Origin: Chiloscyllium plagiosum
Taxonomy: Eukaryota
Direction: 5' to 3'
Length of the DNA: 58,989 nucleotides
NCBI RefSeq assembly: GCF_004010195.1
Contig: NC_057752.1
Location: 11,976,012 to 12,035,000, forward strand
Shown: positions 641-57,929 of the stretch, piece by piece
How the letters are laid out: every line of letters starts with the position of its first letter
Numbering within the stretch: the first letter of the stretch is position 1
The notes under the pieces: model-generated
Seen by the model: only the letters and a program-made list of their open reading frames with translations
Database searches by the model: none
What the model was told of the DNA's origin: nothing
Made by a program: the position numbers and the translations under genes

Positions 641-740
641 AGATGGAAATGTGTTGCTGGAAAAGCGCAGCAGGTCAGGCAGCATCTAGGGAACAGGAGA
701 ATCGACGTTTCGGGCATTAGCCCTTCTTCAGGAATGAGGG
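641..740 (-). mobile_element. 100-bp PLE terminal-repeat insertion (family A) with hammerhead motif
   Basis: Perfect 13-bp TSD AGTTCTCTTTCTG at 628-640 and 741-753. Same sequence family as the repeat that ends the GIY-YIG element at 4333-5094. Confidence 0.88.
704..731 (-). ncRNA. Minimal type I hammerhead ribozyme motif (family A, intact core)
   Basis: CUGAAGA-A-GGGC-UAAU-GCCC-GAAA-CG-UC: both conserved boxes, a 4-bp helix II and a GUC cleavage triplet. Confidence 0.8.
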
Positions 741-2513
741 AGTTCTCTTTCTGGCAAGGTATGGTAAGTATTTGCCTGGCTTGTCACCATGCTCGTATAA
801 CCTTTGCTTTGCAAAAGCCAGCTCCTTCTTTGCCGTCTGCGTGAGCACGGAATTTAGTGCAGACCGCAGTGCCATAACCCTCTGTAGTTTGACCAACGAG
901 GGTCTGTCAAAATAGGCCTTCTCGGCTGCCTTCAACCGTTCTTCAAGGAGACGTTGCTGCTCACCCTTCTGCCGCTTCCTACTTGTGGAATATGAAATAA
1001 CTAACCCTCTGGCATAAGCTTTGGCAGTTTCCCAGAGAACAGATGAGCTATCAACCGAGTCTATGTTGATGTCTAGGAAAGCCCGAAATTCCCAAGAGAA
1101 ATACTCCACAAACGTACTGTCCATGAGAATAAAGGGGTCCATTCGCCAGTACCTTGAATCCACTGTAACATCCTTAATCTTAACCATGAGGTACACTGGA
1201 GCATGATCAGAGATGGCAATATTACCAATCGTACAGGATGCCACCAGATCCAGGGTTACCGCAGGGGTCAGAAATAAATCAATCCTCGTGTGACATCTAT
1301 GCTGATTGGAGAAAAACATGAAATCCCTACCTGTAGGGTGGAGACACCTTCAGACGTCCACCAATCCCAATTCCCCACACAAACCCAATAACTGTTTAGT
1401 TTGTGCAGAGGGTATCGAGGGACCTTTAGGCAACCTGTCTACTGTGGCGTCCATGAGGCAGTTAAAATCTCCCCCTATAATGATGTGCCGAGACTTGAGA
1501 CTTATCAGTTTAGAAAAAGCATCTACCAAGAATTTAAGAGGATGAGCTGGGGGACAACAAACATTTAAAATACCATATTCTTCCCTATTTATCAAGGCTT
1601 GAAGAATTACAAACCTCCCGTATGTGTCTTTAACATAGTCCAACAATTTAAATGAGACATTTTTCCTAACCAATATAGCCACTCCCCTACTTCTGGTATT
1701 AAATGATGAAAAATAAACTCGGTCAAAGCCATTCTGCTGTAATTTCAGATGCTCCTTGTCATCCAAATGTGTCTCCTGTAACAAAGCAATATCCACCTTC
1801 TCCTTTCTAAGGCTCAAGAGTACCTTCTTCCTCTTAATTGGTGAGTGACTTCCCTTGATATTCCAGGTACACCATTTAATCAAATCATTAGCCATAATCT
1901 TCTGCAATTACATTTAAATTCCAGAGAGGAGGAACCCGAACCACAAATTGCTGAGCCTTAGTGTCACATGGTCCACCAAATATAAAAACTACATAAACTA
2001 AAACCACTACATTTAACAATCATACAAAATTATTAAAAATAAAAAACAACAAAAACCAGAAAACAAACCAACATATAAAGTGCCAATAGCACTGAGTAGG
2101 GGAACTCACCCCCTGCCCGGAGGGGGCAACTACCCATCCCGAACTGCCCATAAATAGGCATCTAACCAGCTCAACCACCTTCACTTCTCCCAGCTAGAGC
2201 CGCATCACAAGCACAAAGTAAAAAGAATAAACACCCCATAGAATATCAATATGAATAAAATAAAAACATTCTTTCTTTTATGAATAAAAGGGGGAATATA
2301 TACCCCATCCATCCTTTGCTATGTCCTAACTTAGAAATTTAAAATGTACATCTTAACCACCGCCAGACATAGTTTGAACCAAATTATTATCAATGGACGA
2401 ATAAAAAAAAGGGGAAAAAAAACAAAGCTCCAACCAGATTTCCTCCATTTCTTTTACAGAATGATAAACGCATACCCAAGCAACGATATTTATACGTACT
2501 ACAATTGTTTAAA

Positions 2514-3315
2514 TTAGGTTAGTTTGTCCACAAAGTCTCTTGCCTTCTCCGATGTGTCAAAGAGATGCATGGATCTATCTAAGGTGATCCGAAGCACTGT
2601 CGGATATCTCAGGGAGTACTGAATCCCAAGCTCCTTCAGTCTTCTCTTAACACCATTGTACGATTTTCGTTTCTGGATCACCGCCGCTGAAAAGTCCTGA
2701 AAAAACATGATCTTAGACCCCTCGTAAATTAGGGCCTTTGGTTCCTTCCCCTGGAGTCTGGAAGCCTTCATGACTCTCTCCTTATCCCGGTAATGATGGA
2801 ACCGCACCAGGAAAGGACGAGGGCGTTGACCCAGACCCGACCTCCGTGCTGTGACCCGGTGAGCCCTATCTATCTTCAATCCTCTCATGTCAGTCTCCAA
2901 GTCAAGGAATTTCGGAAGCCAATCTTCAACAAATTCCGCAGGCCGCTTACCTTCCTTACCCTCGGGCAAACCGATGATCCGAATGCTTTTTCTCCTGCCC
3001 CTGTTTTCAAGATCATCCACTTGGTCACGCAAATTTCAGGGCTTGGATCTCTTCCTTGAATGAACTGGCATCAGCTTCCACCACTGTGATCCTGTACTCT
3101 ACCTCATCCGTCCTCTTCTCCAGGTCTCCCAGCTGCTGCTCATGCTTCTGCAGCATGAGAGAGACTGGAGCCAGCTTTTCTTCAATCTGTTTCCCCAGCA
3201 TCTCGCAAGATTTCGAGAGCTGGTTCACCAGGTCCTGGAAAGTAATCAGCTCTGAGGCTGCTGCAGGCTGAGCTGCAGGCCCGGCCTCGGATGCTCCTCC
3301 TCCCTTTTTAGGCAT
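2514..3315 (-). pseudogene. L1 ORF1 (coiled coil + RRM/CTD), one frameshift near 3030
   Basis: DDLENRGRRKSIRIIGLPEG, IDRAHRV, RPRPFLVRFHHY, IMFFQDFS and YSLRYP are typical L1 ORF1p motifs. Confidence 0.9.
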
Positions 3316-3480
3316 TTCTGGACAGCTGAAAATACAGGTTAGTCAATTTTTAAATGTTTTTTGGGGCTCCACAATCTTTCCAACGCCCCAAGAAATCCTG
3401 ATGACCTGGGTTGGGTGGGTTAAAGGACCGTCCTGTTCCTGCTGCGATGCAAAGCTCTGCAGTGTGATCTTCTTAGATCG

Positions 3481-3490
3481 CCGCCATCTT
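3481..3490 (-). promoter_or_regulatory. YY1-type motif at the L1 5' end (internal promoter)
   Basis: AAGATGGCGG lies 8 nt from the element start. Confidence 0.6.
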
Positions 3491-3510
3491 AGATCCCCAG
3501 AAAGATATTT

Positions 3511-3828
3511 TTAGATTAGATTCCCTACAGTGCAGAAACAGGCCCTTCGGCCCAACAAATCCACACCGGCCCTGCGAACAGTAACCCACCCAGATCCATT
3601 CCCCTATTCCCTACTAATGCACCTATCATTATGGGCAATTTAGCATGGCCAATTCACCCGACCTGCACATCTTTGGACTGTGGGAGGAAACCGGAGCACC
3701 CGCAGAAAACCCACACAGACACTGGGAGAATGTGCAAACTCCACACAGACAGTTGCTCAAGGCTGGAATCGAACCTGGGTCCCTGGCGCTGTGAGGCAGC
3801 AATGCTAACCACTGATCCACCATGCCGC
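3511..3828 (-). mobile_element. HE1-type tRNA-derived SINE
   Basis: A-box/B-box head (TGGATCAGTGG ... GGTTCGATTCC), core TGTGTGGAGTTTGCACATTCTCCC, CR1-like tail ending in (AATCT)n. Confidence 0.9.
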
Positions 3829-4332
3829 TGGGGATTTCAGTTAGGACAGTGAGGTTCTAGAACATGATTAATATTAGGTACGGGCATAAAGGTGCATAAA
3901 TCCCCAAGGCCTGATGAGATTTATCCCAGGTTGCTATGGGAGGCAAGGGAGGAGATTGCTGGAGATATTTAATACTTTGCTGGCCACAGGTGAAGTGCTG
4001 AATGACTGGAGGATAGCTAATGTGGTTCCTTCGTTCAAGAAGGGCAGCAGGGATAGGCCAGGTAATCACAGATCAGTTAGTCTGATGTCAGTGGGAGAGA
4101 AATTAGTGGAAAAAGATTCTGTCGGACAGGTTTAATTAATTTGAAAGGCAGGGATTGATCAGGGATAGTCAGCACACATTTGTTGAAGAGAGATCCTGGC
4201 TGACAAATGTAATCCAGTTTTTTGAAAAGGTGACTACATAGTGATGACAGTAGTGCAGTTGATGTGGTTTACATGGAATTCTGAAGGCCTTTGACAAGGT
4301 CCCACATTGAAGGCTGATCCAAAATTCTGGAT

Positions 4333-5094
4333 TAGAGTGGTGCTGGTAAAGCACAGCAGTTCAGGCAGCATCTGAGGAGCAGGAAAATCGACGTTTCGGG
4401 CAAAAGCCCTTCACCAGGAATAGAGGCAGAGTGCCTGAAGGGTGGAGAGATAAATGAGAGGAGGGTGGGGGTGGGGAGAAAGTAGCATAGAGTACAATAG
4501 GTGAATGGGGGTGGGGATGGAGGTGATAGGTCAGAGAGGAGGATGGAGTGGATAGGTGGGAAGGAAGATAGGCCGGTAGGACAGGTCATGGGGACAGTGC
4601 TGAGCTGGAAGTTTGGAACTGGTGCGAGGTAGGGGAAGGGGAAATGAGGAAACTGGTGAAGTCCACATTGATGCCCTGGGGTTGAAGTGTTCTGAGGTGA
4701 AAGATGAGGCATTCTTCCTCCAGGCGTCGGTGGTGAGGGAGCGGCGGTGGAGGCCCAGGACCTCCATGTCCTCGGCTGAGTGGGAGGGGGAGTTGAAATG
4801 TTGGGCCACAGGGCGGTGTCCCAGAGATATTCCCTAAAGCGCTCTGCGAGGAGGCGTCCAATCTCCCCAATGTAGAGGAGACCGCATTGGGAGCAACGGA
4901 TACAATAAATGATATTAGTGGATGTGCAGGTAAAACTTTGATGGATGTGGAAGACTCCTTTGGAGCCTTGGAAGGAGGTGAGGGAGGAGGTGTGGGCACA
5001 GGTTTTACAGTTCCTGCGGTGGCAGGGGAAGGTGCCAGGATGGGAGGGTAGGTTGTTGTGGGGGGACGTGGACCTGACCAGGTAGTCACGGAGA
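4333..5094 (-). mobile_element. Penelope-like element, 5'-truncated: GIY-YIG endonuclease end + terminal repeat
   Basis: Minus-strand frames give IIYCIRCSQCGLLYIGE, VAQHFNSPSH and LIFHLRTLQPQGIN. A hammerhead-like motif at 4390-4417 has a mutated CUGGUGA box. Confidence 0.92.
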
Positions 5095-5099
5095 ATTCA

Positions 5100-5200
5100 A
5101 TGTTCATCTCTAGAAGGATTTGAACCCATGCCCTTAGGGAATTGAGCTCAGCCTCTTGATTACTAGCCCAGCTACATTAGCACAGTGCCACCACCGTTTT
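5100..5200 (-). mobile_element. tRNA-derived SINE head fragment
   Basis: The reverse strand reads GGTGGCACTGTGCTAATG...GGGTTCAAATCC (A/B boxes separated by a long spacer). Confidence 0.55.
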
Positions 5201-9630: not shown

Positions 9631-9659
9631 AAATTTAAAGGGCAAGTGAACAAATCAAT

Positions 9660-10372: not shown

Positions 10373-12427
10373 CTGTACAGGTTAACAAAGAGCAACTGAT
10401 GAGCATTTCAGTCAGATATTCATGCTAAAATTACAAGTGCAGCATGATCACACAGGGGATGACATTATGGACTTGATGCTGACCTTGCAGTCTGGGGTTA
10501 CGCTCATACAAACAGTGCTCAGTGAGAAGATCCCATAATATGCCACTCCCCACAACCATTACTGTCCCACCCAGTCTAATCCCACACTCCCCACGTCTTT
10601 TAATATCCCACCCACCCTCCACTTTGTTCACAAGAACCTGTTGTAGCGACTCCCAATTCTCTCTTTGGGAGTCGCTACATCTGAACCCCATTTGCTGACA
10701 TGGTGATCTTACATGAGACAGGAAGCACAGATTGTGATGTATGCAACTGATGTTTCTTTTATTTTCAAAAAAACACAATATTCAATTATAACATAAACAC
10801 AGAATATAAGAACAGGAGTAGGCAATTCAGCCCAGTGATCATAGCTGAGAATTGAGCTCAATACCCAAATCCCTCCTTCCTCCCATACTCCTTGATTCCT
10901 TTAACCACAAAAGCTGTACTTACCTCCTCCTTGAAAACACAATATTTTGGCTTCAACCATTTTCTGTGGCAGTGAATTCCACAGGCTCACCACTCTCAAG
11001 GGTGAAGAAATTTCTCCTTATCTCATTCCAAGAACATAGAACCATACAGCACAGTACAGGCCCTTCGGACCTTGACGTTGCACCAACCTGTGATACCGAT
11101 CTGAAGCCCATCTATTCGACAATATTCCATTATCATCCATATGTTTATCCAATGACCATTTAAATGCCCTTAAAGTTGGCGAGTCTGCTACTGTTGCAGG
11201 CAGTGCGTTCCACGCCCCTACTACTCTCTGAGTAAAGAACCTACCTCTGACATCTGTCCTATATCTATCACCCCTCAATTTAAAGCTATGTCCCCTCGTG
11301 CTAGCCATCACCATCCGAGGAAAATGGCTCTCACTGTCCACCCTATCTAATCCCCTGATCATCTTGTATGTCTCTATTAAGTCACCTCTTACAAAAACAG
11401 CCTCAAGTCTCTCAGCCTTTCCTTATCTGACCTTCCCTCCATACCAGGCAACATCCTGTAAGTCTCCTCTGCACCCTTTCCAAAGCTTCCACATCCTTCC
11501 TATAATGCGGCTACCAGACTGTACGCAATACACCAAGTGAGGCTACACCAGAGTTTTGTACAGCTGCAACACGACCTCACGGCTCCAAAACCCAATCCCT
11601 CTACCAATAAAAGCTAACACACCGTAAGCCTTCTTAACACTACGATCAACCTGGGTAGCAACTTTCAGGGATCTATGCACATGGACACAGACCTCTCTGC
11701 TCATTCCACACTACCAAGAAACTTACCATTAGCCCAGTACTCTGCATTCCTGTTACTCCTTCTAAAGTGTATCACCTCACACTTTTCCACACCCTCCATT
11801 TGCCACCTCACAGCCCAGCTCTGCAGCTTATCTATGTCTCTCTGTAACCTGAAACATCCTTCAGCACTATCCACAACTCCACTGACCTTAGTGTCATCCG
11901 CAAATTTACTAACTCATCCTTCTGCGCCCTCATCCAGGTCATTTATAAAAATGACAAACAGCAGTGGCCCCAAAACAGATCCTTGTGTGACACCACTCGT
12001 AACATTTCCCATCAACCACCACCCTCTGTCTTCTTTCAGCTAGCCAATTTATGATCCAAACCGCTAAATCACCCTCAATCCCATGCCTCCGCATTTTCTG
12101 CAATAGCCTACCATGGGGAACCTTATCAAATGCCTTACTGATATCCAAATACACCACATCAACCACTTTACCCTCATCCACCTGTTTGGTCACCTTCTCA
12201 AAGAACTCAATAAGGTTTGTGAGGCATGACCTGCCCTTCACAAAACCATGTTGACCATCCCTAGGTTTACCTCTAGTCCTTCAACTATGAATCCTAGTTC
12301 TGCGCTTTCCCACTGTCAGGGACATTCTTCCTGCATCTAACCTGTCTAGTCCTGTTAGAATTCTAGGAGACTCCCCCCTTATTCTTCTAAACTCCAGTGA
12401 ATACAATCCTAACCGACTCAATCTCTC

Positions 12428-16100: not shown

Positions 16101-16441
16101 TTTAGGGTGTAGGTTTGCTCGCTGAGCTGTAGGTTTGATATCCAGATGTTTCATTATCTGGCTAGGTAACATCATCAGTGGCGACCTCCAAGTGAACCGA
16201 AGCTGTTGTCTCCTGCTTTCTATTTATATATCTTTCTCCTGGATGGGGTTCCTGGGGTTTGTGGTGATGTCATTTCCTGTTTGTTTTCTGAGGGGTTGAC
16301 AGATGGTATCTAGATCTATGTGCTTGTTTATGGCATTGTGGTTGGAGTGCCATGCCAGAGAATTCCTAGAGGCCTGGCACTCCAACCACAATGCCTACAC
16401 CCTAAACCCTACACCCTGAGCTACAAACCTTCACAAACCTT
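16101..16441 (-). mobile_element. PLE fragment (family D) with hammerhead motif
   Basis: 13-bp imperfect TSD (16088-16100, 16442-16454), an REFLEAWHS endonuclease-end motif, and an internal inversion. The minus-strand motif is CCA-CUGAUGA-UGUUAU-...-AUAAU-GAAA-CAUC-UGG-type at 16142-16181. Confidence 0.75.
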
Positions 16442-17204
16442 GCTATATGGACTACCTCGAATCAAGCTATGCTTTTCCAAGTAATCATAAATCCTGTCCC
16501 TCAGAATCCTCTCCAAAACTTTGCTCACCACTGGCGTAAGGCTGACAGGTCTGTAATTCCCAGGATTATCCCTATTCCCTTTCTCGAACAAGGGAATAAC
16601 AACATTTGCCACCCTCCAACCATCTGGCACTGCTCCTCCATTTCTTTGTTCCTCATTATAAATTCCCCCATTTCTGAACGTGTGGGACCTAAATTACTTT
16701 TCAACAATTTGTTTCTCTTTACATATCTCTCAAACTTTTACACTCAGTTTTTAAATTTTCAGCAAGCTTACTTTCAATCTATTTTCCCCTTCTTGATCAA
16801 TCCCTTGGTCCTCCTTTGCTAACTTCAGAAATGTTCTCAAGCCTCAAGTCTATTGTTTTTTCATGCCAACTTGGATGCCTCTTTTATGCATCTAAAACTA
16901 TCTCTAATTTCACTCGTAAGCCACGGTTTGGCCACTGACTTCTTGCACCAGTCAGGAATAAACAATTTTTGCTGTTCACCCATTTGCTCTTTGAATGTAT
17001 GCCATTTGCCCATTCACGGTCATTCTGTTCAGTAACATTTCACAGTCCATCAAAGCCAACTCACGCCTCATACGATCCTAGTTTCCCTTAAAGATTCAGG
17101 GCCCTAATCTCAGAATCAACTACCTCACTCTACATCTTGATGAAGAATCTGATCATATCATGGTCGCTCACACATTATCATTATTCCTTTCTCATTACAT
17201 GGAG

Positions 17205-17830
17205 GAGCCAGTGTTGGACTGGGGTGGACAAAGTTTAAAAAAAAAAAAAAATCACAACACCAGGTTATAGTCCAACAGATTTATTTGGAAGTACTAACTT
17301 TCAGAGTGCTGCTCCTTCATCAGGTAACTGTGGAGCAGGTCCATAAGACAATTTATAGCAAAAGATTACAGCGTCATGCAACGAAATGATATATCAAACA
17401 AACCTAGATTGTTATTAAGTCTTTCATTTTTTAGAATGGGTTGTCGGTTCATTAATATGTAAAACCCAGAACTTCTTTTAAGTCACATTCTCAAGATAAC
17501 TTAAGATTTTATTTAAAAAAAGGTGACATCTCAGCTCAGACAGTGCATTGAATTCCACTTTGGAAATAGAACCAGTCTGACTCAAGATCAGGATACAGAC
17601 AGATCCTAACCTACACCTTTAATGCATTGTCTGAGCTGAGATGTCACTTTTATTAAATAAAACCTTAAGTTACCTTGAGAATGTGACTTATGCAACCCAT
17701 TCAAAAAGACGAAAGACTTAACAGCAATCTAGGTTTGTTCAATATATCATTTCAGTTGCATACAAATTCTGTGTTTTATGGTCCTGCTCCACAGCTACCT
17801 GATGAAGGAGCAGCACTCCAAAAGCTGTTT
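17205..17830. mobile_element. PLE family C fold-back element with a hammerhead motif in each arm
   Basis: Arms ~17295-17550 and ~17620-17826 are reverse complements. Each carries CTGATGAAGGAGCAGCACTC(T/C)(G/A)AAAG. Confidence 0.8.
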
Positions 17831-19162: not shown

Positions 19163-19399
19163 AGAAAGTGAGGACTGCAGAAGCTGGAGATCATAATCGA
19201 GAGTGTGGTGCTTAAAAAAAAGCACAGCATGTCAGGAGGCATCCGAGGTTTCGGGCAAAAGTCCTTCATTACGAATGAGGCTTGTGGGCTGGGGCTTATA
19301 AAGAAATGGGAGGCGGCTGGGGGGGGATGGAGCTGGGAAAGCAATAGGATGGGGGAGAAGGTGGAGCGGAGAGATAGGAAAGGCAATGCACAGGTCAAG
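19163..19399 (-). mobile_element. PLE family A terminal fragment
   Basis: Starts AGAAAGTGAGGACTGCAG; imperfect TSD A9CTT(T/A)(A/G)GT at 19147-19162 and 19400-19415. Confidence 0.8.
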
Positions 19400-20044: not shown

Positions 20045-21310
20045 AAATGACTGAAAACAACAAATGCTGGTGATCATAGTGGGTCAGGCAGCATCCATGG
20101 GGAGACAGCAAACTAATGTTTCTAATCTAGATGACTCTTCATCAGAGCTGATGTGTGGAGGGGATAGCATTTATGCAATGGAGTGGGGGAGGGCAGTACT
20201 GGTGGAGAAAGGATGTTCATAGTTCAGATTAAGTGATCAGAATGGGAGAACAATGGTGTGTCTAAGTGCCAGACTGGGAAGGACAGACAGTCCCGCTGGA
20301 GTAGGGGAAGGGGAGAGAACTCATGGTGACAGACAATGTAACAAGTAAAGCTAAAAGAAATGGGTTCACAATGTGAAGGTATTGAACTCACCAAGTCCAG
20401 AAGGTTGTAAAGTGCCTAGTTTGAAGCGCTGTAGCATGCTGAGGACAGAGAAGCGTATATGCAAGCAGGACCCTGTGTTAAAACGATCTGTTACAGGAAG
20501 GTCAAGGTCACACTGCACACAGAGCATGAGATGTTCTGCAAAGTGTCACCCAATCTATGTTTGATTTCTCCAATGTACAGTCGGCCACATTGGGTGTAGC
20601 AAATATGATAGGGAGAAAGTGAGGACTGGAGATGTGTTGCTGGAAAAGCGCAGCAGGTCAGGCAGCATCCAGGGAACAGGAGAATCGACGTTTCGGGCAT
20701 AAGCCCTCCTGAAGAAGGGCTTATGCCCGAAACGTCGATTCTCCTGTTCCCTGGATGCTGCCTGACCTGCTGCGCTTTTCCAGCAACACATCTCCGGCTC
20801 TGATCTCCAGCATCTGCAGACCTCACTTTCTCCAGAAAGTGAGGACTGCAGATGCTGGAGATCAGAGTCGAGACTGTGGTGCTGGAAAAGCACAGCAGGT
20901 CAGGCAGCCTCCAAAGAGCAGGAGAATTGATGTTTCAGGCAGAAGCCCTTCATAAGGAGTGGTGAAGGGGTTCCTGACAAAGGGCTTCTGCCTGAAACTT
21001 GACTCTACTGCTCCTTGGATGCTGCCTGACTTGCTGTGCATTTCCAGTACCACACACTCGGCAGCAAATACAATTACACAAGATTGGATGAAATGCTGCT
21101 CCACCTGGAAAGACTGTTTCGGCCCTTGGATGGTGAGCAGGGAGGACGTGAAAGGGCAGGTATTGCACCTTCTGCGGTTACATGGGAAGGTGCCATGGGA
21201 AAGGATGGTGGTGTTGGTGGTCGAGGAATGGACTAGTGTATCCCAGAGGGAATGATCCCTGCGAAATATGGACAGGAGAGTGAGGGGGGAAGATGTGTTT
21301 AGTGCTGGCA
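20045..21310 (-). mobile_element. PLE (family B) GIY-YIG end + terminal repeat, hosting two nested family-A fold-backs (20611-21060)
   Basis: TFPCNRRRCNTCPF and CGRLYIGE motifs; degenerate hammerhead at ~20115-20150; nested TSDs. Confidence 0.85.
20709..20736 (+). ncRNA. Minimal hammerhead ribozyme motif (family A, intact core)
   Basis: CUGAAGA-A-GGGC-UUAU-GCCC-GAAA-CG-UC. Confidence 0.8.
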
Positions 21311-23619: not shown

Positions 23620-26600
23620 ACATAGATAATAATCCCCTATACACTAGCTATCTTCTTTATGCATAGTAATAAGCTTAACAGTATTTTATACAAATAACTT
23701 AATACATAAACTAAGAATTTAGCCACTATTTATATATACTGGCTCACCTTCAAGCCTCTTTGGCAATTAGCAGCATGTGGTAGAGTAAAATTCATAACGT
23801 GTAACAATTTACATCATTCTATCACAACACAGTCTGGGTTCATTCATTTCTTGGCTTCTGCTGCAGGAGCCTAGAGTCCATAGTTAGCTATTCCCATTCA
23901 CCAGACCTATTTCCATAGCCGTCTAAATTCATCACTTTAAAATGTATAGCCAGCTCTCTTTTGAAACCTCCATCACTCCCCCAAGCAGCGCATTCCAAAT
24001 CCTAACAATTCTGAGTAAAAAGGTTTTTCCTCACCTGACTCCTAGCTCTCTTGCTGACAGTCTTGAAATTGTGACCCCTAGTTAGACATGCTAAATTGTC
24101 GAAATAGAATATCCTTCTTTACCCTGTCAAAATTGTTCATAATTTAGAAAACATCATTAAAACTTCACCTCTTAATCTTCTTTGCTCCAAGGAGAATAAC
24201 CCTAATTTCTCTATTGCTTTCCTTGTATATAAAATTCTTCATTCCTGGTATTGTTCTGGTAAATCTCCTTTGAAACTTATCCAGGGCTTTAACATCCTTC
24301 CTTAAATAAGGTGCCCAGAACTGAACACAATACTCCAAATGTGGTCTGACCAATGATTTTTAGAGGTGTAACATCACTTCTGAAGAAAGGTCACTGGACC
24401 TCAAAACATTAATTCCAATTTCTCTCCACAAATGCTGCTTGACCTACTGAGGTTTTCCAGCAATTTCTGGTTTTGTTTTGGATTTCTAGCCTCCTCAGTT
24501 CTTTGGTTTTTCTGCAGCATCACTTCCTTGCTTTTATACTCTATGTCTCTATTTATAAACCCAAGGATCCTATAAGCATTAACAACTGTTTTGACTTGCC
24601 AGCCCACCTTCAGAGAATCATGCATGTGAACCCCTCCTGTACTCCCCTCAAAGTTATATCAATGAGTCTGTATTGTCTCTATGTCTTTCTTCTACCAAAA
24701 TGCATTACCTGACATTTCTCCCAGTAATCCCCAAAAGTTTGTTTGAGTTCATCACTGATATCGACAAAGCTCTCACTTCTCTTCTGGATGTCTGTGCTCA
24801 ATTAGGCCTACCTTGCCTGGTGTGTGTGGCCTCATACAAAAGGTGTTTTGGATGTTACATGTAAAGGTCCCATGCTAGTAGTTGTGCAATGTTCTCCCTT
24901 TCCCTTGTATGCAATCCTGGTGATGTCTATGTTCAGTGTCCGAATCTCTGCAATACAAATTAGAATGCTGTTTGTCCGAAAACCACACAAGGCATGTTTA
25001 TTTGAATATACAGAGTCGGGGGTACACAATTATTTCTTTTGTCTGCTAACATCTATTCAGAGTGGTACATACGAGGCTTCCCTCTTTCTCAACAGCATAC
25101 AGAAGGTCCTGTTTGAATTTGAACCATGCTCACACTCAGGTAATGCTGGCATTTTCCAACTCGAAGACTTGTAACCCATTTTGAGTTTGTGTTATGATCA
25201 GGATCCCCAGGACCAGGGCCACAGTCTTTCCTGGGGTTCCCTTAAAATCATTGTTAAACCAGACCTTAGTCAATTGCTGTAATTGACAATTTGAAGTCTC
25301 TCTTCCTGCAGAGCAAATACTCTATCTGCTCAGGACCTGTTCTTGCTTAGCTTGCTTGAGGTTTGCCCTCAACTGTTTGATCATCCATTGGCCATAGATG
25401 CCGCACAGGGACCTATTCTGCTCCTTACTGTCATCATCTCTTTTTCCTCGGATGATCTTGTTGATGGTCCTGGTGTGCTCTCTAGCACAGTTACTATGTT
25501 GGTTGTCTGTGATTTTCTTTTATTTGCCCTCGGCATCTTGCTGACTGTTCAGATTAATTTTATCCAAGGGCTGTTTAACTTGCTTGCTTAAAATTCTGAA
25601 CTTATTGTCCAAATTAGTCACATCAAGAGTATTGACTGTGGACACTCCTGCTCTGTAAGCTGTTGCCAAATCATTCAAAATCTTATACAAATCCCGCTGG
25701 CCTGGGTCTGGCCTCCCCCCTTGTCAATCTCTGTTTCCATCCTAATAGCCAATGAGTCAAATACAAGTATAATTTCTGAAGTTGGGAAGGGCACCATTCT
25801 GGAAGCTGGGTTCAGGATTTATCTAACCCCGCTGGTACCAATTCACGGTGTACATTGTCGTCCAGGGGTTTTGCCTGTGTGTTTTAAAATCACCCTATTT
25901 TGTGGTGCTCAGGTAGTCCTCGGACAAACACATGCACTTTCTGGCTGCTTTTAGCCCTTTTTAAATTTTGTATCGGACATAGTTCCCCCTTCGACCTTCC
26001 TGGGGCATTGTTGCCCAATTTTACAGCCCTTTCTCTGGACCGGTAGCCAAACATACCATTTCAGTACATCTGTTTGTGGAGAACGCTACCTGTCACCCAT
26101 GGTGTCTATACTCAGGTGGTAATACTTTGACTCTCGTTTGTCTTTCTATACATAACCCGTTGGTTGTTACAGCCAAACATCACGGATTGTTGGGATGGAC
26201 CTACAAAGCACCATCCCCACATTTGCCTGCCTCCAATGGGACAAACCACTGAGAGCCGGGATATGTGTACTCTTGCCCAATTATTGCTTCTGACAATCAC
26301 ATCCTGGTATCCAGCCAATGATTAGACCAACAGACTGTATGTCATCAACCTGAAGAGGGGATCAAAGTGGCATCTATTGTTATGCTAATGTAATATCTGA
26401 CCAAGTTTAGATATCTCCCCACCCTTCTCCATCTGTGGAGATATTTTTCTAACTCTGTTTGGTTCTGGTCTGCATTCAGCTAAACTCCGTCCAAAATTTA
26501 CTTTTATTGAATTCTCTCAATTCCCCTCTTGTCAGTCAATTATGTTTGTGTCAGGCCCTCACTTCAAACTGGCAGGGTGGAAGTGGGTTGGTGCGATGCA

Positions 26601-27809: not shown

Positions 27810-28548
27810 GTAATTCTTTCTCATTCTTGGTATATCTATTCTCCAGCTTGTTCTTCCATTTCCTCCCAGTCTATCTTTTTATCACCATCCCCATCTGATT
27901 CTGTTGTCCCAAATGCGCACATCATTCCCATTTGCATGGAAGGTTGCCACTTTTTCAATCTCGTGCTGGAGTGTTCAAAGCACGGGCTCTATTTTCTTTG
28001 CCTGCTCTGTAGGTTTCTGCATTTCTCAGTGAGCTCATCCATAGCTTTTTTGGGCTGTACCCTGATCACTGACCGTGTGTTGCGCCTTCTGGTGTACTCC
28101 ATCACACTGGGTCTGAAACTGTTCCAAGTGTACTGCCCACCTGGTTCTTCTGCTCTGCTGCTTTGACTCTTAATTTCTCCACTTTCTGCTATATTTCTTC
28201 CACTCCCTGACTTAGCTTCACCACCTCCCGTTCTCTGTCTCTCAGCTGCTCCACACAGCTGGTTATTACTATCCTGATGAAGCGCTTTTGCCCGAAACAT
28301 CAATTTTCCTGCTCCTCGGATGCTGCCTGACTTGCTGTGCTTTTCTAGCACCACACTCTCGACCTTTATCACGATAGTTTGTTAAGTTTTAAAGCACTCT
28401 TACTTTCAGCTTTCCATGCCACCTTCCTGCATTTCTGTCCCACAGGTCCCAGACCTAATATTTGCTCACTGCAATGGTTGACTCACTTGGGCCACTTCTT
28501 ATTTAGGTATTTCCTTAGTATCTCTTCCCACTCTGGGCACTGTGCCAT
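27810..28548 (-). pseudogene. gag-like N-terminal remnant, interrupted by a PLE mini-insertion (28273-28365)
   Basis: MAQCPEWEEILRKYLNKKWPK*, then ITSCVEQLRDRER and coiled-coil-like segments. It lies downstream of the LTR-like repeat. The assignment is by resemblance only. Confidence 0.45.
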
Positions 28549-29478: not shown

Positions 29479-29651
29479 GCAGAAAGTGAGGACTGCAGAT
29501 GCTGGAGACCAGAGCTGAAAATGTGTTGCTGGAAAAGCACAGCAGGTCAGGCAGCATCCAAGGAGCAGGAGAATTGACATTTCGGGCATAAGCTGAAGAA
29601 GGGCTTATGCCCGAAACGTCGATTCTTCGGTACCTTGGATGCTGCCTGACC
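29479..29651. mobile_element. PLE family A fold-back mini-element
   Basis: Perfect 13-bp TSD TGTAAAGTGCATA (29466-29478, 29652-29664); intact hammerhead core at 29593-29620 (+). Confidence 0.88.
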
Positions 29652-29919
29652 TGTAAAGTGCATACTCAAGTAGTCAAAATGCCAGAACGTCTGATCAACA
29701 CTTCTCCAATACACAACCCTCGGGCTGGTTGGAACTGGTTCCCCCAAACCTTTCTGACCTCTTTGACCTTGATTTCCGCTGTTCTCTGTAGTCAATAGCT
29801 GCTGACTACTGTTTAATTCAATTTGGCCAATTTTCTGTCAGGCCTGAGTTCTCCAGCTGTGTGTCAATTTAGAATCTCCAATTTTAGATCGGTAGTCATC
29901 TGACTAGTGACCTTCCAGA

Positions 29920-33429: not shown

Positions 33430-33780
33430 TTAAAAATCTTGAGAAACTCAGCAGGTCTGGCTGCATCTGTGGAAAGAAAACAGTGTTAGCGCCGAGTCCA
33501 GTGAGCCTTCTTCAGGGCTGATAGTAGCAAGGAAAAGATGGCATGTATGCTGATGACAGGTGATGAGGGGGAAAAAGGAGTAAGCAGACAGGTGTAGATG
33601 CGAGCCCAGAGGGAGACAAAGAATGTTAGACAGACAACGGCATAGACAATAGTAAGGAAAGGAGAAAAGCTGATAATCAGAAGTGCAGGAAATGGGTCGG
33701 ACACTCCTAAGGACCGTTTCAACAACAGTGGCAGGGAATCTTCAGTTGAAGTAAAAGGTGGACATTTCTGAGGTTTCCTG
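33430..33780 (-). mobile_element. PLE family B terminal fragment
   Basis: GAAACTCAGCAGGTCTGG...GAGTCCAGTGAGCCTTCTTCAG (degenerate hammerhead on the minus strand). Confidence 0.7.
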
Positions 33781-35390: not shown

Positions 35391-35444
35391 CCTTGGGGTA
35401 TCTTACTACAGTAAAGCTGACAGTCAATGCTTTTAAAATCACAT

Positions 35445-36520: not shown

Positions 36521-37839
36521 CTATAAATGAAAAAAGAAATGCTACACACTGCTCCCCAAAGTACATTGCTTGAGACACATTCCCAGTTAGCCAGTGGTAA
36601 GCAATTCCTTTTAAGCACACAGATTTGTTACCAAATGTCTTCTCAGCTTCAATTATGAACATTTGAGGCTCAGTGTGGGATGGGTGAGATAGAGACTGCA
36701 GGTTGAGGGATAGTCAGATGGTTACGCTGGGAGTGGGAATCAGAAGAAGTGGCCTAAGGTGAGGAATGAAATGATAGGTGTATAGGGGTGAGCAAGAAGA
36801 CTGTTAGGGTGTTGAGAAGATGGGTCACAGAGTGAGGAGTTGTGAACAGGCTCAGGGAAGGAGAAAAAGGTCAGAATCAAAGGATTTTAGCTTGGTGGAT
36901 GTGAAACAGAGATACAAAGCTTCAGGTGAGGAGGGACGAAAAGGAGAATGGGCTCGACATGTGTCCAGCATTTCTCTCAGAGCTGCAGCAGTGTGGCGAT
37001 TGAAATTCAATCTAGGGGGTAGGGTAGCAAAGAGGAAAACGAGGGGATCTTGTTGTGGATAGATAGTGAGAGATTGTTTCCATTAAAATCCTGTCAGGTG
37101 GATGGAGAAGTTTCCATGGCCATTACTTAGAGAGCAAGGAACAATGTCCTGTTCATTATTGCTCAATTGGCATCAATAAAACAAACTTCAATTAATGTCA
37201 ACTGTTAATTTATCTACAAATGCTGTTCGACAAGTGTTTTCTATTCCTATTTTCCCCCCCAAAAAAATGAGCTTGCTGTTGTTATGGGATCTTGTTGTAT
37301 ACCCATTTCTAACATTACAATGGTGACATTTCAAAGAGTGCAAGATGTACATAAAGAACAGGAACTCAGCTGATCAGGGAGACAATTTTAGTGAGAATAC
37401 TGAGGTCTGGCACTACTGCAGCAGCCACTTCTTAGCTGGAACCAGGTGGAAGGCCAGAGCCAATCTGCAGCCCTGCACAAAGGGCAGAATCTTCCAAGGG
37501 TGAATTAAAACTGACTCCCCACTCCACTAGTGACGCCCAGTCACATGCCCATGCAATCTTGCCAGAGCCATTTGCCTCCAGAAGTGCATTAACACATCCT
37601 ACTGGACCAAGGAATTAGTCCACAGTTGTTCAGCTGGCAGTCCCAGTGGGAGAGGCAGGTGCCATTGCAGCAGACAGGAAGAAGCGAGGGTATCTTTAGA
37701 TAGCGATACAGATGTTGAAAAAAAAGTTTAAAATGATTTATGGTGGGGGATTTGCTGCATTGACAGGCCAGTTTGCTGTTGCAGCTGTAGTTCTGCAACA
37801 GAAGTGGTAACAGATTGGGGCGTAAATAAAATCAGAAGC

Positions 37840-38050
37840 AAAAATGGAGTGTGCTGAAAAAGCTCAGCAGGTCTAGCAGCACCTGTGCAGAGAAATCAAA
37901 GTTAAATGTTTTGGGTCTGGTGACCCTTTCTCAGAACTGGGAACTGAAGTTATGAGGAAGGGTCACCAGATCAGACCTGAAACATTAACTCTAATTCTTC
38001 TTCACAGATGCTGTCAGATCTGCTGAGCTTTTCCAGCAATTTCAATTTTT
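37840..38050. mobile_element. PLE family B fold-back in the SPRYD4 intron
   Basis: AAAAGCTCAGCAG...GTGACCCTTTCTCAGAACT is followed by its reverse complement; degenerate hammerheads. Confidence 0.8.
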
Positions 38051-38118
38051 GCAGGAGTGTAAGTAAAAGAGGCATTGCTGAGAGGCTGTCTCCAAGAACT
38101 TGTTAGTCTTTGCCTGCA

Positions 38119-38473
38119 AGGAGAAAGTGAGGACTGCAGATGCTGGAGATCAGAGTTGAAAAGGTGTTGCTGGAAAAGCGCAGCAGGTCCAGCAGCATCC
38201 AAGGAGCAGGAGAATCGACGTTTCAGGCATGAGCCCTTCTTCAGGAATGAGGAAAGTGTCCAGCAGGCTAAGATAAAAAGGTAGGGAGGAGGGACTTGGG
38301 TGAAGGGACGTTAGAAATCTATCACATTTCCAACACCCAAGTCTCTCCTCCCTACCTTTTTATCTTAGCCTGCTGGACACTTTCCTCATTCCTGAAGAAG
38401 GGCTCATGCCCAAAATGTCAATTCTCCTGCTCCTTGGATGCTGCCTGACCTGCGCTTTTCCAGCAACACATTC
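38119..38473. mobile_element. PLE family A fold-back in the SPRYD4 intron
   Basis: ~150-bp inverted arms; TSD AG(T/A)CTTTGCCTGCA at 38105-38118 and 38474-38487; hammerhead core at 38217-38244 on the minus strand. Confidence 0.88.
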
Positions 38474-45090: not shown

Positions 45091-45091
45091 T

Positions 45092-50261: not shown

Positions 50262-50447
50262 AAAAATGCCAAAGAACTGTGGATGCTGGCAATCAGAAAC
50301 AAAAACAGAAATTGCTGGAAAAACTCACGTCTGGCAATCAGTTATAATCAGTTCTGAAGAAGAGTCACTGGACCTGAAATGTTAACTCTGCTTGCTTTTT
50401 ACAGATGCCTAATCTGCTGAGTTTTTCCAGCAATTTCTGTTTTTGTA
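50262..50447. mobile_element. PLE family B fold-back with hammerhead motif at 50350-50387 (+)
   Basis: AGUU-CUGAAGA-A-GAGUC-ACUG-GACCU-GAAA-UGUU-AACU; the outer arms AAAAACAGAAATTGCTGGAAAAACTCA are inverted. Confidence 0.8.
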
Positions 50448-50559
50448 TCTTGTCTGAATTATTGCTTCTTAGCAAGCATAATAAACCATCTGATATTCTT
50501 TATGAATGGTCAACTGCCAATATGAGGTAATTATGGTCCCAGATCCCAAAATCCAGTGG

Positions 50560-52634: not shown

Positions 52635-55600
52635 TTCATAGCTCCTTGAAAGTGGAGTCACAGGTAGATGGGATAGTTAAGAAGGCGTTTGGTGTGCTTT
52701 CTTTTATTGGTCAGAGTATTGAGTAGAGGAGTTGGGAGGTCATGTTGCAGCTGTACAGGATATTGGTTAGGCCACTTTTGGAATATTGTGTGCAATTCTA
52801 GTCTACTTCCTATAGGAAGGATGTTGTTAAACTTGAAAGGGTTCAGAAAAGATTTACAAGGATGTTGCCAGGGTTGGAGGATTTGAGCTACAGGGGAATG
52901 AGCTGCCAGAGGATGTGGTGGAGGCTGGTACAATTGCAACATTTAAGAGGCATTTGGATGGGTATATGAATAGGACGGGTTTGGAGGGATATGGGCCGGG
53001 TGCTGGCAGGTGGGACTAGATTGGGTTGGGATATCTGGTCGGCATGGTCGGCTTGGACCGAAGGGTCTGTTTCCATGCTGTACATCTCTATGACTTGTAA
53101 ACATCCGGCCAAAACATGATGAATAGCACCACCTAGAGGAAAGCTATGAAGTGCAAAGGTGAACTTTTTCTCCCCCCAGAAATTGAAGTGAACATTTTGC
53201 AACACAAAATAAAAACTGAAAGTTCTAGAAGCGTGCAACACATTAATCCTGTTATGTAGGTTTATATAGAATATTCAACAAAGAAATAGGCTATTCAGTT
53301 CAGCTTGTGGTCCAAACAAGCCTCCTGTCACCTCTCTTCATCTAATCCCATTGGTATTCCTTTCTTCTTCATGTGTTTTGTTTCCCCTTAAGTGCATCCA
53401 TGCTCAGGAAAAAAGGTTGATCGAGGGCATTTGGATTCCCAGGACGCATCTAGTAAGGGGTCACATAAAAGATTACTGCAAATGGTAGGAGCTCACAGTA
53501 TTGGGGGTAATGTATTAACATGCATTGGGGATTGGTTAACATTAAAGAAAGAGAGTCAAGATGAATGGGTCTTTTTCTGGTTGAAATGTGTGGTGCTGTA
53601 AAAGCACAGCAGGTCAGGCAGCATCCGAAGAGCAGGAGAGTCGACATTTTGAGCATAAGCTCTTCATCAGGAATGTAGGGCGGCCCAAGAGGGCTGAGAG
53701 ATAAATGGAAGCGAGGTGGGCCTGGGGGGAAGGTAGCTGAGAATGCAATAGGTAGATGAAGGTGGGGGGTGATGGTGATAGGTGAAAGAGCTGGGTGGAG
53801 CAGATAGATGGGAAAGAAGATGGACAGGTAGGACAGTTCAAGATGGCGGTGCTGAGTCGCGAGGGTTGAATCTGGGATAAGGTGGCGGGAGGTGAGATAA
53901 GGATTGATTTCTCCAGTATCTGCAGTCCTCACTTTCTCCTCCTTTTCAGGTTGGAAAGACGCAACTAATGAAGTGCCGCAAGGAACAGTCCAAGGCCTCA
54001 ATTATTTGCTATCTCTGTTAATGATTTGGAGGATAGGACAGAGAGTAATGTATCATTGCTGACGATACTAAAGTAGGTGGGAGAGAGGGCATGTTGTGAT
54101 GAGGTCATGAGGAATCTGCAAGAGGATATAGATAGGTTGAGTGAGTAGGTAGAACCTAGAAGATGGAGTTCAATGTAACAAAGTGTGAGGTCATGCACTT
54201 TGGTGGAAGAATCAAAAGGCAAATTATTAAAATGGAGAGAGACTCCAAAAATGTGCAGCATGGAAGGATCTAAGTATTCTCGTGTATGAAACACAAAAAG
54301 CTAGCATGCAGGTGCAGCGAGTAATCAAGAAGACAAAGGTTGTAATAGAGAGAGGGATCGAGAGGGCTGGAGGGTAAAATAGAGAAGTCTTGTTCCAACC
54401 ACACAGGATTTTGATGAGGCTACACCTGCAGTACTGTGTACAGTTTTGGTCCTCATATTTAAGAAAGGATGTCCTGACATCCTTAAAATATTTAAAGAGG
54501 AGGGAGATAGATTTTTGAAATATTGAGGAGTTGGAGGCTGTGATAGGCTACTACAAAACATTACTGAAAATAAGAGCAGGAGGAGGCCAGTCAGCGCTTC
54601 AAGCCTGCTCCGCCATTCAACATGATCATGTCTGATCATCCAACTCGGTACCCTGTTCCTCTTTCTCCCCATACCCTTTGATCCTTTAGCCCGAAGAATT
54701 TTATCTAACTCTTCCTTGAAAACATTCTGGCCTCAACTGTTTTCCATTGCAGAGAATTACACAGACTCACTGCTGTCTGGGTGAAGAAACTTCTCCTCAT
54801 CTCAGTTCCTAAATGACCTCCCCCATATCTGTAAGACTGTGGCTCCTTGTTCTGGACTCCCTGGTCATCGAGAATATTCTTTGCATCCTCACTGTCCACT
54901 GGAGTCGTGCCAGATGATTGGAGAGTGGCAAATGTTATTCCCTTGTTCAAGAAAGGCAATAGGGATAATCCTGGGAATTACAGACCAATCAGTTTTTCAT
55001 CAGTGGTGAGCAAAGTATTGGAGAGGATTCTGAGGGACAGGATTTATGATTACTTGGAAAACCATAGTTTGATTAGAGATAGTCAGCAATGATAGTCATT
55101 GAAGGGCAGGTCATGCTTCACAAGCCTTATTGAATTCTTCAAGGATGTGACAAAACACATTGATGAAGGTAAAACATTGGATATGGTGTATATACGGATT
55201 TTAGTAAGGTGTTTGATAAGGTTCCCCATGGTCGGCTCATTCAGAAAGTAAGGAGACATGGGATACAGGGAAATCTGCCTGTCTGGATGCAGAATTGGCT
55301 GGTCCATAGAAGACATAGGATGGTGGGAGATGGAAAGTCATTGATGAAGGTAAAACATTGGATGTGGTGTATATACGGATTTTAGTAAGGTGTTTGATAA
55401 GGTTCCTTATCAAACGGCTCATTCAGAAAGTAAGGAGACATGGGATACAGGGAAATCTGCCTGTCTGGATGCAGAATTGGCTGGTCCATAGAAGACATAG
55501 GATGGTGGGAGATGGAAAGTATTTAGCTTGGAGCTTGGTGACCAGTGGTGTTCCACAGGGATCAGTTCTGGGACCTCTGCTCTTTGTGGTTTTTATAAAT

Positions 55601-56215
55601 GATTTGAATGAGGAAGTGGAAGGTTGGTTAGTAAATTTGCCAATGCCACAAAGGTTAGTGGAGTTGTGGATAGTGTGGAGGGCTGTTGTAGGTTGCAATT
55701 GGGCATTGACAGGATGCAGAGCTGGGCTGAGAAGTGGCAGATGGAGTTCAACCCAGAAAAGTGTGAAGTGATTCATTTTGCAAGGTCGAATTTGAATGCA
55801 GATTACAGGGTTAAAGACAGGATTCTTGGCAGTGTGAAGGAATGTTGGGATCCTAGGGTCCATGTCCATAGATCCCTCAAAGTTGCCACCCAAGTTGATA
55901 AGGTTGTTAAGAAGGCGGCTGGTGTGTTGGCTTTCATTAGCGGGGGATTGAGTTTAAGAGCCGCAAGGTTATGCTGCAGCTCTATAGAACCCTGGTTAGA
56001 CCACGCTTGGAATATTGTGTTCAGCTCTGGTTGCCTCATTATGGGAAGGATGTGGAAGCTTTAGAGAAGGTGCAGAGGAGATTTACCAGAATGCTGCCTG
56101 GACTGGAGGGCATGTCTTATGTAGAAACGTTGAGAGAGCTAGAGCTTTTCTCATTGGAGTGAAGAAGGATGAGAGATGACTTGATAGAGATGTACAAAAT
56201 GATGAGAGGCATGGA
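52635..56215. mobile_element. Cluster of CR1 fragments with a PLE family-A insertion (~53587-53940) and a 181-bp tandem duplication (55158-55520)
   Basis: CR1 RT motifs ([27 protein letters not shown]). The PLE is flanked by an imperfect C(T/C)TTTTC(T/A)GGTTG duplication. Confidence 0.88.
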
Positions 56216-56574: not shown

Positions 56575-56736
56575 GGGGGTCGGTTTAGCTCAGTTGGCTG
56601 GATGGCTAGTTTGCGAAGCAGTATGATGCCCACAGTGTGGGTTCAATCCCCCTACCAGCTGAGGACACCATGAAGGATTCTCCTTGTTAACCTCACCTGA
56701 GATGTGGTAGTCCTCAGGTTAAATCACTACCAGTTG

Positions 56737-56767
<31 letters not shown>

Positions 56768-56806
56768 GAGAGAGCAGCCCTATGGACTGGTAAGATTATG
56801 GCTACT
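56575..56806 (+). mobile_element. tRNA-derived SINE (second family); an inverted head copy lies at ~57420-57515
   Basis: TAGCTCAGTTGG A box, GGTTCAATCCC B box, flanking TTTCTG(T/A)CT duplication. Confidence 0.8.
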
Positions 56807-57149
56807 TGTCTTTTCTGACTAATGAAGAACTTAGCTTATCTCAATTGTTGCTTGAAAAACTGAATATTTCTTGCAGACGGTTGACTGCCCATATTAGGAA
56901 ACTGTGGTCCCTCTTTTCTCATGTGCAATTTGTTTTTGCCTTTGAGCGATCAACGGTCACTTCAGCAACTCTGTTTTATACACTATGAAAGCTCTTAAAA
57001 CTTGTTATATTCTTGGCTAAATATTATACTTGTACCATATCAATTTTTTTGGTCACGCTTTGCAGATAATCTGAAACATCCTGAATCCTCAGATTTTATA
57101 CTATACTTTACAACATTATAAGCCTCCTCTTTTAACTATAGGGAAGCTC

Positions 57150-57390
57150 AGTTGTTAGTGCCAGGGATCTGGGTTCTGTTCTAGCCTCAGATGATTAACT
57201 ATTCCGAGTTTGCACATTCTCCCCGTGTCTGAGTGGGTTTCTGCCAGGTGCCTTCCAGAGTCCAAAGGTGTGCAGATTAGGTGGACTGACCATGGGAAAT
57301 GCAGGGGTCAGGGGATAGGTTGGGATGCTTTTTGGAGAGTCGGTGTAGACTCGTTGGGCCAAGTGGATTCCTTGTAGAGATTCTATGATT
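57150..57390 (+). mobile_element. Degenerate HE1-type SINE
   Basis: GAGTTTGCACATTCTCCCCGTGTCTG core. Confidence 0.8.
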
Positions 57391-57611
57391 ATCCTCGGGT
57401 CAAGTCACCAGAAATGGGACCTTCACGGTGACTTCAGCCAAAATGGGAATTGAACCCATGCGGTTGGTGTCATTCTGCATTGCAAACCAGCTAACCATCC
57501 AACTGAGCTAATTGACAGCCACCCCCACTGCATTCAGACAAAGAGTCTTTAATGGTTTTCCATAATTATTCCTTGCACGGAACATGTTTGATTTTGTATG
57601 ACTATTATATT

Positions 57612-57929
57612 CTCTTGTAGAGGGGGGAAGTGAGCTTCTTCAAGGAAGGCATCCATGCAAGAGGATTCGCAGTAGGTTAAAATCTTCTAGGAGAAAGTGA
57701 GGACTGCAGATGCTGGAGATCAGAGCTGAAAATGTGTTGCTGGAAAAGCGCAGCAGGTCAGGCAGCATCCAAGGAGCAGGAGAATCGACATTTCGGGCAT
57801 GAGCCCTTCTTCAGGAATCATGCCCGAAACGTCGATTCTCCTGCTCCTTGGATGCTGCCTGACCTGCTGCGCTTTTCCAGCAACACATTTTCAGCTCTGA
57901 TCTCCAGCATCTGCAGTCCTCACATTCTC
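57612..57929. mobile_element. Young PLE family A fold-back (near-perfect ~120-bp arms)
   Basis: ~57690-57801 versus ~57818-57930 are reverse complements; TSD CTATTATATT at 57602-57611 and 57930-57939. Confidence 0.9.

Follow-up and report, generated by a model that had tools for sequence, protein, structure and literature searches.

The window analyzed here is a 58,989-nucleotide stretch of the genome of the shark Chiloscyllium plagiosum (contig NC_057752.1, forward-strand positions 11,976,012 to 12,035,000), in which minimal type I hammerhead ribozyme motifs recur on both strands. The motifs are real and abundant; a hammerhead motif in the terminal repeat (pLTR) of a Penelope-like element is of a known kind, and these shark copies are a new case of it. 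They lie in 5′-truncated end pieces of Penelope-like elements, most of which probably arise when reverse transcriptase (RT) starts inside the uncut element RNA and copies to the first base of that RNA. Positions within copies are given relative to the C of the CUGA box, with the predicted cut site at +28, and the copies fall into four families, A to D. The Penelope-derived features of the window are listed below.

637..739, minus: family A solo copy, from -8 to ~+95, with an intact motif at 704-731
4289..5114, minus: long family A copy, 3′ region, with a broken CxxxxCxxC linker and GIY-YIG remnant (4655-5114) and a decayed motif at 4390-4417 (CUGGUGA); tblastn E 2e-27 to the RT/GIY-YIG protein P0010
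16097..16365, minus: family D, Poseidon-type by its missing Zn-finger linker, with the end of the endonuclease frame and TATAAAT at about -50
16145-16178, minus: family D motif, helix I CCA/UGG, 7-bp helix II
16349..16450, plus: second family D arm, inverted and internally deleted, ending in an AC-rich tail
17199..17535, minus: family C copy, motif 17295-17323, helix I UAC/GUA
17635..17826, plus: second family C copy, inverted, ending near the cut site
19169..19326, minus: decayed family A copy with an internal deletion
20054..20610, minus: B-related copy, motif 20115-20145, helix II GAGUC-AUCUA-GAUUA, GIY-YIG remnant 20387-20610
20626..20832: family A head-to-head pair; minus arm 20626-20710 with the short 3′ end, plus arm 20707-20832 long, with motif 20709-20736
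20834..21053: second family A head-to-head pair, decayed
24369..24506, plus: family B copy with a decayed core
28272..28357, plus: solo copy of family A that begins at -2 and has a disrupted helix II
29481..29653: family A head-to-head pair with target-site duplication GTAAAGTGCATA; the plus arm starts at CUGA, without the 5′ strand of helix I
33438..33667, minus: long copy of family B whose core has decayed, preceded by TATA-like CATACA(T)
37827..38051: two family B arms head to head, each beginning at -5/-4
38121..38472: family A head-to-head pair flanked by a 13-bp target-site duplication, its arms longer (-63, -80); minus-strand motif 38217-38244
50269..50470: family B pair; plus-arm motif 50350-50387, helix I AGUU/AACU, A.C mismatch in helix II
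53583..53903, minus: family A, GAGC/GCUC subfamily, G12 changed to A
57614..57929: family A head-to-head pair; the minus arm starts at -4 (57818), carries motif 57787-57814 and continues beyond the tail for 83 bases of element body
57820-57929, plus: plus arm of the preceding pair, starting at +14

A further GIY-YIG remnant (20889-21266, minus) lies directly upstream of the decayed family A pair at 20834-21053 and partly overlaps it, so that 20054-21266 is a nest of three Penelope insertions. A broken Penelope-type RT remnant at 34303-35442 (minus), in part ~70% identical to protein P0001 and split by another repeat, does not continue collinearly into the family B end at 33438-33667.

An earlier interpretation made from the letters alone (the sequence-only reading) had listed nine places carrying the motif. 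All nine hold it or a decayed form of it, but several details of strand and pairing had to be corrected. The motif at 53643-53670 lies on the minus strand and has a broken core (G12 to A), and those at 17292-17326 and 16142-16181 are also on the minus strand. Helix II at 50350-50387 (GAGUC/GACCU) had been taken as paired throughout; since it contains an A.C mismatch, it is not. The helix III palindrome is lost in the family C copy of the window, which reads AGUU in place of AGCU, and the predicted cut in family C follows CUA rather than the proposed GUC or GUU.

Abundance of the motif

The strict descriptor consisted of CUGANGA, 0-1 extra base, at least three helix II pairs, GAAA, 0-4 bases, UH and at least two helix I pairs. 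A descriptor search, one of the checks that the sequence-only reading had put forward, returned six matches in the window, compared with a mean of 0.12 and a maximum of 1 in 100 dinucleotide shuffles. The genome was sampled with 60 stretches of the assembly (G000) at round coordinates (585,670 bases) and 10 later stretches (99,810 bases), 685,480 bases in total; these stretches were not drawn at random, come from large contigs only, and contain gaps that hide long copies. The first 60 held 32 strict matches, of which one looks like chance, vs. a mean of 0.6 in ten shuffles, and the later 10 added three.

Copies were also searched with profiles built from natural copies. The core is covered by 21 of the 27 profile matches in the window (13 A, 6 B, 1 C and 1 D), and ten places have both boxes intact, one extra base and the helix II of their family, seven of them with four closing pairs. 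The statement that the motif recurs more than 12 times thus stands if decayed copies are counted (21) and fails for intact places (10) or strict matches (6). Across the 70 sampled stretches there are 152 core-covering copies (139 + 13), or 222 per Mb, in line with the very high genomic density that had been suggested. With 361 per Mb, the window is close to the genome norm. The strict density in the sample is 51 per Mb, and extrapolation from this non-random sample to 3.56 Gb gives ~180,000 strict and ~790,000 core-covering copies. End pieces occupy 33,545 of the 685,480 sampled bases, ~5 in 100, which makes this genome a large record of Penelope insertion. Rfam, at both thresholds, returned no hammerhead family in the window; its only response to the palindromes was hairpin look-alikes.

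Families and their coding remnants

To judge from coding remnants and profile comparisons, families A, B, C and D are the 3′ ends (pLTRs) of Penelope-like retrotransposons of three lineages. Each is tied by tblastn to GIY-YIG coding remnants upstream of its terminal repeat, identified against PF01541-carrying proteins or close relatives of those. These remnants and the excess of strict matches bear out the placement of minimal type I hammerhead motifs in Penelope-like terminal repeats. Upstream of family A, a CxxxxCxxC linker and GIY-YIG frame are found at window positions 4797-5096 (minus) and at 11 other loci (L001-L012), and collinear RT remnants precede the repeat in L004, L009, L011 and L012 (RVT_1, E 4.6e-6). 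Longer homologues of the L004 RT piece number 161; RVT_1 and PF26215 are present in most of them and GIY-YIG in many. The closest, a Chiloscyllium punctatum protein, is 91% identical, in support of the shark origin that the sequence-only reading had named. No solved structure matched this piece.

An A-like endonuclease remnant precedes long family B copies (L113, E 1e-42 to P0010; L051, E 5e-9; also window 20387-20610). The DNA profiles of the two families cross-match, with best E values of 1.1e-8 for the B profile against A copies and 8e-8 for the A profile against B copies, and both families have a common block, GATGCTGCC.GACCTGCTG..TTTTCCAGCA, behind the ribozyme motif. The cross-match and the block mean that A and B are related, hence the count of three lineages. 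Family C stands behind a different linker-bearing endonuclease, 27-30% identical to that of A (L098, L090), and family D, with two relatives, behind an endonuclease lacking the linker (L074, L078, L079, L048, L054). The sequence-only reading had seen at least four unrelated families with structurally equivalent motifs; the families do differ in their helices, but A and B are sisters and all four are Penelope-like elements that inherited the motif rather than converging on it.

The linker reads CHRRNCKTC in A and CHGNHCKTC or CHGYHCKTC in C, is reduced to a remnant CNTC in B (L113), and is absent in D. A CX2-5CxxC linker marks Neptune and Nematis in the available text of PMC8557442. Families A, B and C would accordingly belong to the Neptune or Nematis clade, which the linker cannot separate, and the absence of the linker makes D Poseidon-type. 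Pfam by itself found no match on the broken GIY-YIG pieces; in 140 of 214 six-frame pieces of the window it detected no GIY-YIG, only LINE-type (long interspersed nuclear element) RT and endonuclease pieces and a PRY-SPRY exon. In L048, the start of the element body lies between two pLTR ends, forming a partial tandem. An apparent fixed inverted unit in family D was discarded as an artefact, as the query held the window's own inversion.

Structure, covariation and decay of the motif

The boxes are constant across families while the helices change on both sides. One extra base follows the CUGANGA box in 30 of 32 strict sample matches, as the sequence-only reading had proposed, and exactly two bases separate GAAA from UH in 31 of 32, even though the descriptor allowed 0-4. 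The GAGC/GCUC variant of helix II in family A, which it had called compensatory, is a true double change of a subfamily: five copies carry both changes, four and three carry one or the other, and 77 carry neither (Fisher p 1.5e-4). One helix II pair in family B is G-C in 8 copies, A-U in 9, A.C in 5 and G.U in 1, and helix I of three D subfamilies reads CCA/UGG, GCA/UGC and UCA/UGA. Of 39 family A copies, 30 have helix I AUUC/GAUU with a U.U mismatch, and a young subfamily pairs fully as AUUC/GAAU; in A, A-4 is paired with U+31 in 33 of 34 copies. The expected palindrome in helix III was found as ACGU in A and D and as AGCU in 14 of 19 C motifs. Departures from it are mostly CpG decay (CA, TG), which predominates in the old family B (CG in 2 of 15).

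All core bases are kept in 43 of 72 A copies, of which 25 also keep ACGU, and G12, which lies within a CpG, is changed in 18 of 97. At non-CpG core positions, inserted A copies are changed at 27 of 831 sites, compared with 44 of 1376 in the downstream block, 3.2% in both. Selection on inserted copies was thus rejected, and the equal decay suggests that selection acts in master elements rather than in copies.

The young A subfamily (98-99% alike: L020:4900-5174, L032:9558-9832, L069:1331-1568 and L133) has the full 4-bp helix I and a possible fifth pair in helix II, and is the best candidate for activity. L048:2136-2656 (minus) holds two 97-98% young A ends in direct tandem at a distance of 324 bases; an element-body start lies between them and an inverted short arm in front, and the locus is a natural dimer construct. 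A transcript through a head-to-head pair is predicted to form a single long hairpin that buries the motif. When an A motif was folded as two strands, helix II was retained and the helix III region paired across the strands, but the active fold did not form; this result is not used as evidence.

A sharp 5′ edge at helix I

To map the ends of copies, 260 profile matches were aligned to 17 natural reference copies and filtered by identity (0.8), score (70) and distance from the end of the stretch; 192 were kept and 68 dropped, 38 of the latter from family B. Among the 87 A copies that reach +5, 56 stop within -9..+5, with the mode at -3/-4. Outside this bin, 44 stops of A copies were counted (per-base rate ratio 9.3, p 6.5e-26). 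The peak is sharp, with 33 of the 56 ends at -5..-2 and four at -9..-6. It was repeated in a hold-out set (6 of 7, p 3e-4), and families B and C give ratios of 7.2 and 10.7. Solo and paired A copies pile up alike (10.1 vs. 8.0), as do young copies. At the cut site (+28) there is no excess of stops: the bin holds four, a hazard of 0.004 vs. a background of 0.007.

The 21 solo copies in the peak have no common upstream sequence (best local score 23). With these flanks unrelated and the flanks in reads diverse, a missing subfamily was rejected as the cause of the pile-up. A splice acceptor was rejected for family A, which has no AG at -4 and no common upstream exon; this rejection holds for A, while family B carries CAG at -5..-3. 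In the poly-A single-cell run X19, of which 2 in 100 were read, 96 reads exit the element at L072:5596, equivalent to -4, into unlike flanks, and depth falls there from 289 to 79. Inversion joints recur at -4 in X19, and contigs from X2 and X15 end the element at 5595. Since the X19 reads continue into flanks, they mark genomic junctions and not RNA starts.

The edge is accompanied by promoter-like motifs. The initiator consensus is YYANWYY. A match with its A at -4 is present in 6 of 8 A references and 2 of 4 B references; in four of the A references no other match lies within 60 bases. A TTTATC/CTTATC-like motif lies at -34..-37 in 7 of 8 A references, ~30 bases upstream of the initiator-like spot; the corresponding upstream elements are TATAYA in B and TATAAA in C and D. 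A TATA and initiator-like pair is known from the pLTR of the rotifer element Pen2a (PMC3846280, in the text available), and in the accessible accounts of the fly element, transcription begins 46 bases ahead of an intron whose end lies at helix I (PMC2377424; PMC4209133).

Two 3′ ends and the asymmetry of pairs

Each family has two 3′ ends ~35 bases apart, in A at +84-92 (short) and +123-125 (long). Loose 3′ ends in X19 fall at +123 (751 reads) and at +85/+90 (147 and 57 reads). The head-to-head arrangement includes 64 of 120 A copies, and 30 of 31 A pairs combine one long and one short 3′ end (p 1.5e-8). The exception, the pair at 57614-57929, has one arm that runs 83 bases further, so its ends differ too. 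Solo A copies use both sites (31 short, 25 long). The arms of a pair are more alike than other copies (0.91 vs. 0.85), and target-site duplications of 11-15 bases were recognized by eye around 12 of 18 pairs. Pair centres vary between copies, and some junctions overlap by 1-4 bases. No head-to-tail motif array occurs in the window, and only eight same-strand neighbour pairs lie within 1 kb among the 192 copies. At L056:7032-7234, a family C arm and a family A arm meet in a gapless head-to-head junction, which suggests either a nested insertion or priming on two different RNAs.

Other features of the window

An open frame at 35985-36713 (minus) matches PRY (E 2.6e-7) and SPRY (E 1.1e-15) and probably represents the final exon of a TRIM- or butyrophilin-like gene, within or next to which many of the repeats may be located. 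An isolated 154-base fragment of 28S ribosomal RNA is found at 27611-27764 (minus, 121 bits), and a 14-base tandem repeat at 45091-46412 spans an assembly gap. LINE-type endonuclease/RT fragments lie at 1353-1907, 43385-44002, 11942-12280 and 55158-55768, one with a 182-base tandem duplication.

Discussion

How might these end pieces be made? We propose that a promoter in the pLTR would start the RNA at the A four bases before CUGA, and that RT would begin inside the uncut element RNA and copy back to this first base. Both nicked target strands would prime, each at a different start site, giving an inverted pair, and priming in the downstream pLTR of a tandem element would give the longer pieces. 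The ribozyme would be selected only in master elements, would work as a dimer or with an element protein, and would be inert in most inserted copies. For an anole element, both target strands are extended in vitro on uncut RNA, beginning at two internal sites, and the ribozyme cuts only with the element protein present (PMC11167929).

An RNA start at -4 is our favored, and probable, explanation of the 5′ edge. Several observations weigh against the proposal. Family D has no pile-up (1 of 10), and in the portion of X19 read, no point, whether -4, the cut site or any other, stands out as a shared start or end of molecules; run X20 contributed no aligned reads. As a TATA box, the TATA-like motif of A is weak. 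The C peak lacks YYANWYY, and from its TATAAA a start near -8 would be expected, whereas 5 of its 11 peak ends lie at -2. The -9..+5 bin was picked after the first sample had been seen. No full-length element was found, the five candidate stretches with long open frames all holding N gaps, and the clade names would follow from motifs rather than from an RT tree.

The strongest competitor, which we hold to be possible but clearly less likely than an RNA start, is that the edge is made after transcription, where the polymerase stalls or a 5′-3′ exonuclease stops at a folded or protein-bound base of the ribozyme. In A, B and C the terminal pair of helix I falls at the peak (A-4/U+31 in A), C fits the helix edge (-2/-3) better than the TATA spacing, and the anole ribozyme needs element protein for cutting. 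However, a polymerase would open helix I from its 3′ strand before reaching -4, which should leave little structure to stall at; the edge is one-sided and sharp, and in A and B the initiator-like and TATA-like motifs are correctly spaced.

The short units might instead be non-autonomous elements that propagate themselves, like retrozymes or miniature inverted-repeat transposable elements (MITEs), released by ribozyme cutting and reinserted. Their very large number and the target-site duplications around pairs fit such a life cycle, and tandem retrozymes from Penelope pLTRs are described in vertebrates, including one cartilaginous fish, in the available part of a preprint (bioRxiv 10.64898/2026.07.22.740005). 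We nevertheless regard it as improbable: cut RNA would end at +28, where ends are not in excess, pair centres vary, the window has no tandem motif array and the sample few same-strand neighbours, and short copies carry no upstream TATA-like motif.

Hardly more credible, and by a shade the less probable of the two, is the formation of pairs by self-priming on an antisense template, with the peak as a by-product of the junction hairpin. Self-priming has been proposed for rotifer elements (PMC3846280, in the portion accessible), and the similarity of arms and the overlaps of 1-4 bases at some junctions agree with it. Yet solos pile up as strongly as pairs, and arms end at two fixed and different 3′ sites that solos also use, so two priming events fit better than one fold-back. 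That the motifs are chance matches or unrelated repeats converged on the fold is very improbable, as the lack of an Rfam match and a core no better kept than its flank in inserted copies stand against 32 matches vs. 0.6 in shuffles, helix pairs that change on both sides while boxes stay, and families that all trace to Penelope-like coding DNA.

Returning to an RNA start at -4 and priming on uncut RNA, a tentative extension, for which we would claim clearly less confidence, joins the two edges. If, in these Neptune-type elements, the RNA begins at the first base of helix I, the start site would set the length of helix I (4 bp) and place the hammerhead at the capped tip of the message. Cutting there would cost the RNA its cap and shut the element down instead of releasing it. 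A single protein dimer would prime both target strands, using the two start sites of one uncut RNA, and the genomic pairs, in their hundreds of thousands, would be the record of this. Were it true, the Penelope hammerhead would gain a role, as a self-limiting switch, and the formation of head-to-head repeats would be settled.

Comparison with known systems

Minimal hammerhead ribozymes (min-HHRs) occur in the pLTRs of metazoan Penelope-like elements, including the Xena, Poseidon and Neptune elements of fishes, and cleave at low levels, seen only for dimers or with an elongated helix III (PMC4209133). The motifs here share with them the type I core, the extra base between positions 9 and 10.1, the G10.1-C11.1 pair, the palindromic 15.2-16.2 and a short helix I, as well as several covarying families per genome, motifs that are mostly single in truncated copies, and pairs on opposite strands. 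The features that the sequence-only reading held to be striking are present but are published hallmarks. In contrast to that study, which names no shark in its text or searchable supplement and does not report the start points of copies, family D closes helix II with G.U, and the extrapolated ~180,000 copies (51 strict per Mb, with a looser descriptor) lie above the 4,000 in the coelacanth and 9,000 in Xenopus (PMC4209133). Our literature search, which did not extend to Repbase, Dfam and some supplements, turned up nothing on these shark families or on the pile-up; for the whale shark, Penelope is merely listed in the one published genome-repeat passage available. The motif itself being published for fishes, amphibians and reptiles, the value of the present data lies in their scale and in the insertion statistics.

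Like non-LTR retrozymes, as far as the accessible portions of PMC7761336 and Li et al. 2026 describe them, these are type I hammerheads from Penelope pLTRs, with one cartilaginous fish among the retrozyme hosts; retrozymes form head-to-tail arrays, whereas the copies of the window are dispersed solos or head-to-head pairs. Endonuclease-bearing Penelope-like elements (PMC3846280; PMC8557442, both in the text available) show the same 5′ truncation, adjacent inverted copy, target-site duplication, tail of 30-40 bases at one end only, and TATA and initiator-like pLTR motifs. Here, most units begin at the ribozyme and their arms measure only 90-130 bases, and the accessible text of these two papers contains no such pile-up. 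The available parts of PMC8557442, PMC3846280 and PMC7761336 treat both what the Penelope hammerhead does and how the inverted repeats originate as unsettled.

The closest parallel is the anole Poseidon element PAc (PMC11167929), in which two internal start sites make the ′tail′ and both target strands are extended, likewise from an uncut RNA template and with no RNA ends at the cut site. PAc is a single Poseidon element studied in vitro, while here the signature is read from genomic copies of Neptune-type families, in an insertion record that points to a template uncut by the ribozyme, stops at a fixed base and pair arms that start at different sites. Two features that the sequence-only reading did not include bear on mechanism, the 5′ pile-up at helix I and the inequality of the 3′ ends within inverted pairs, and the one-long-one-short rule and the 5′ edge go beyond what PAc has revealed. 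With them, the role of the hammerhead and the origin of the inverted repeats become testable by 5′ mapping and in the existing in vitro system.

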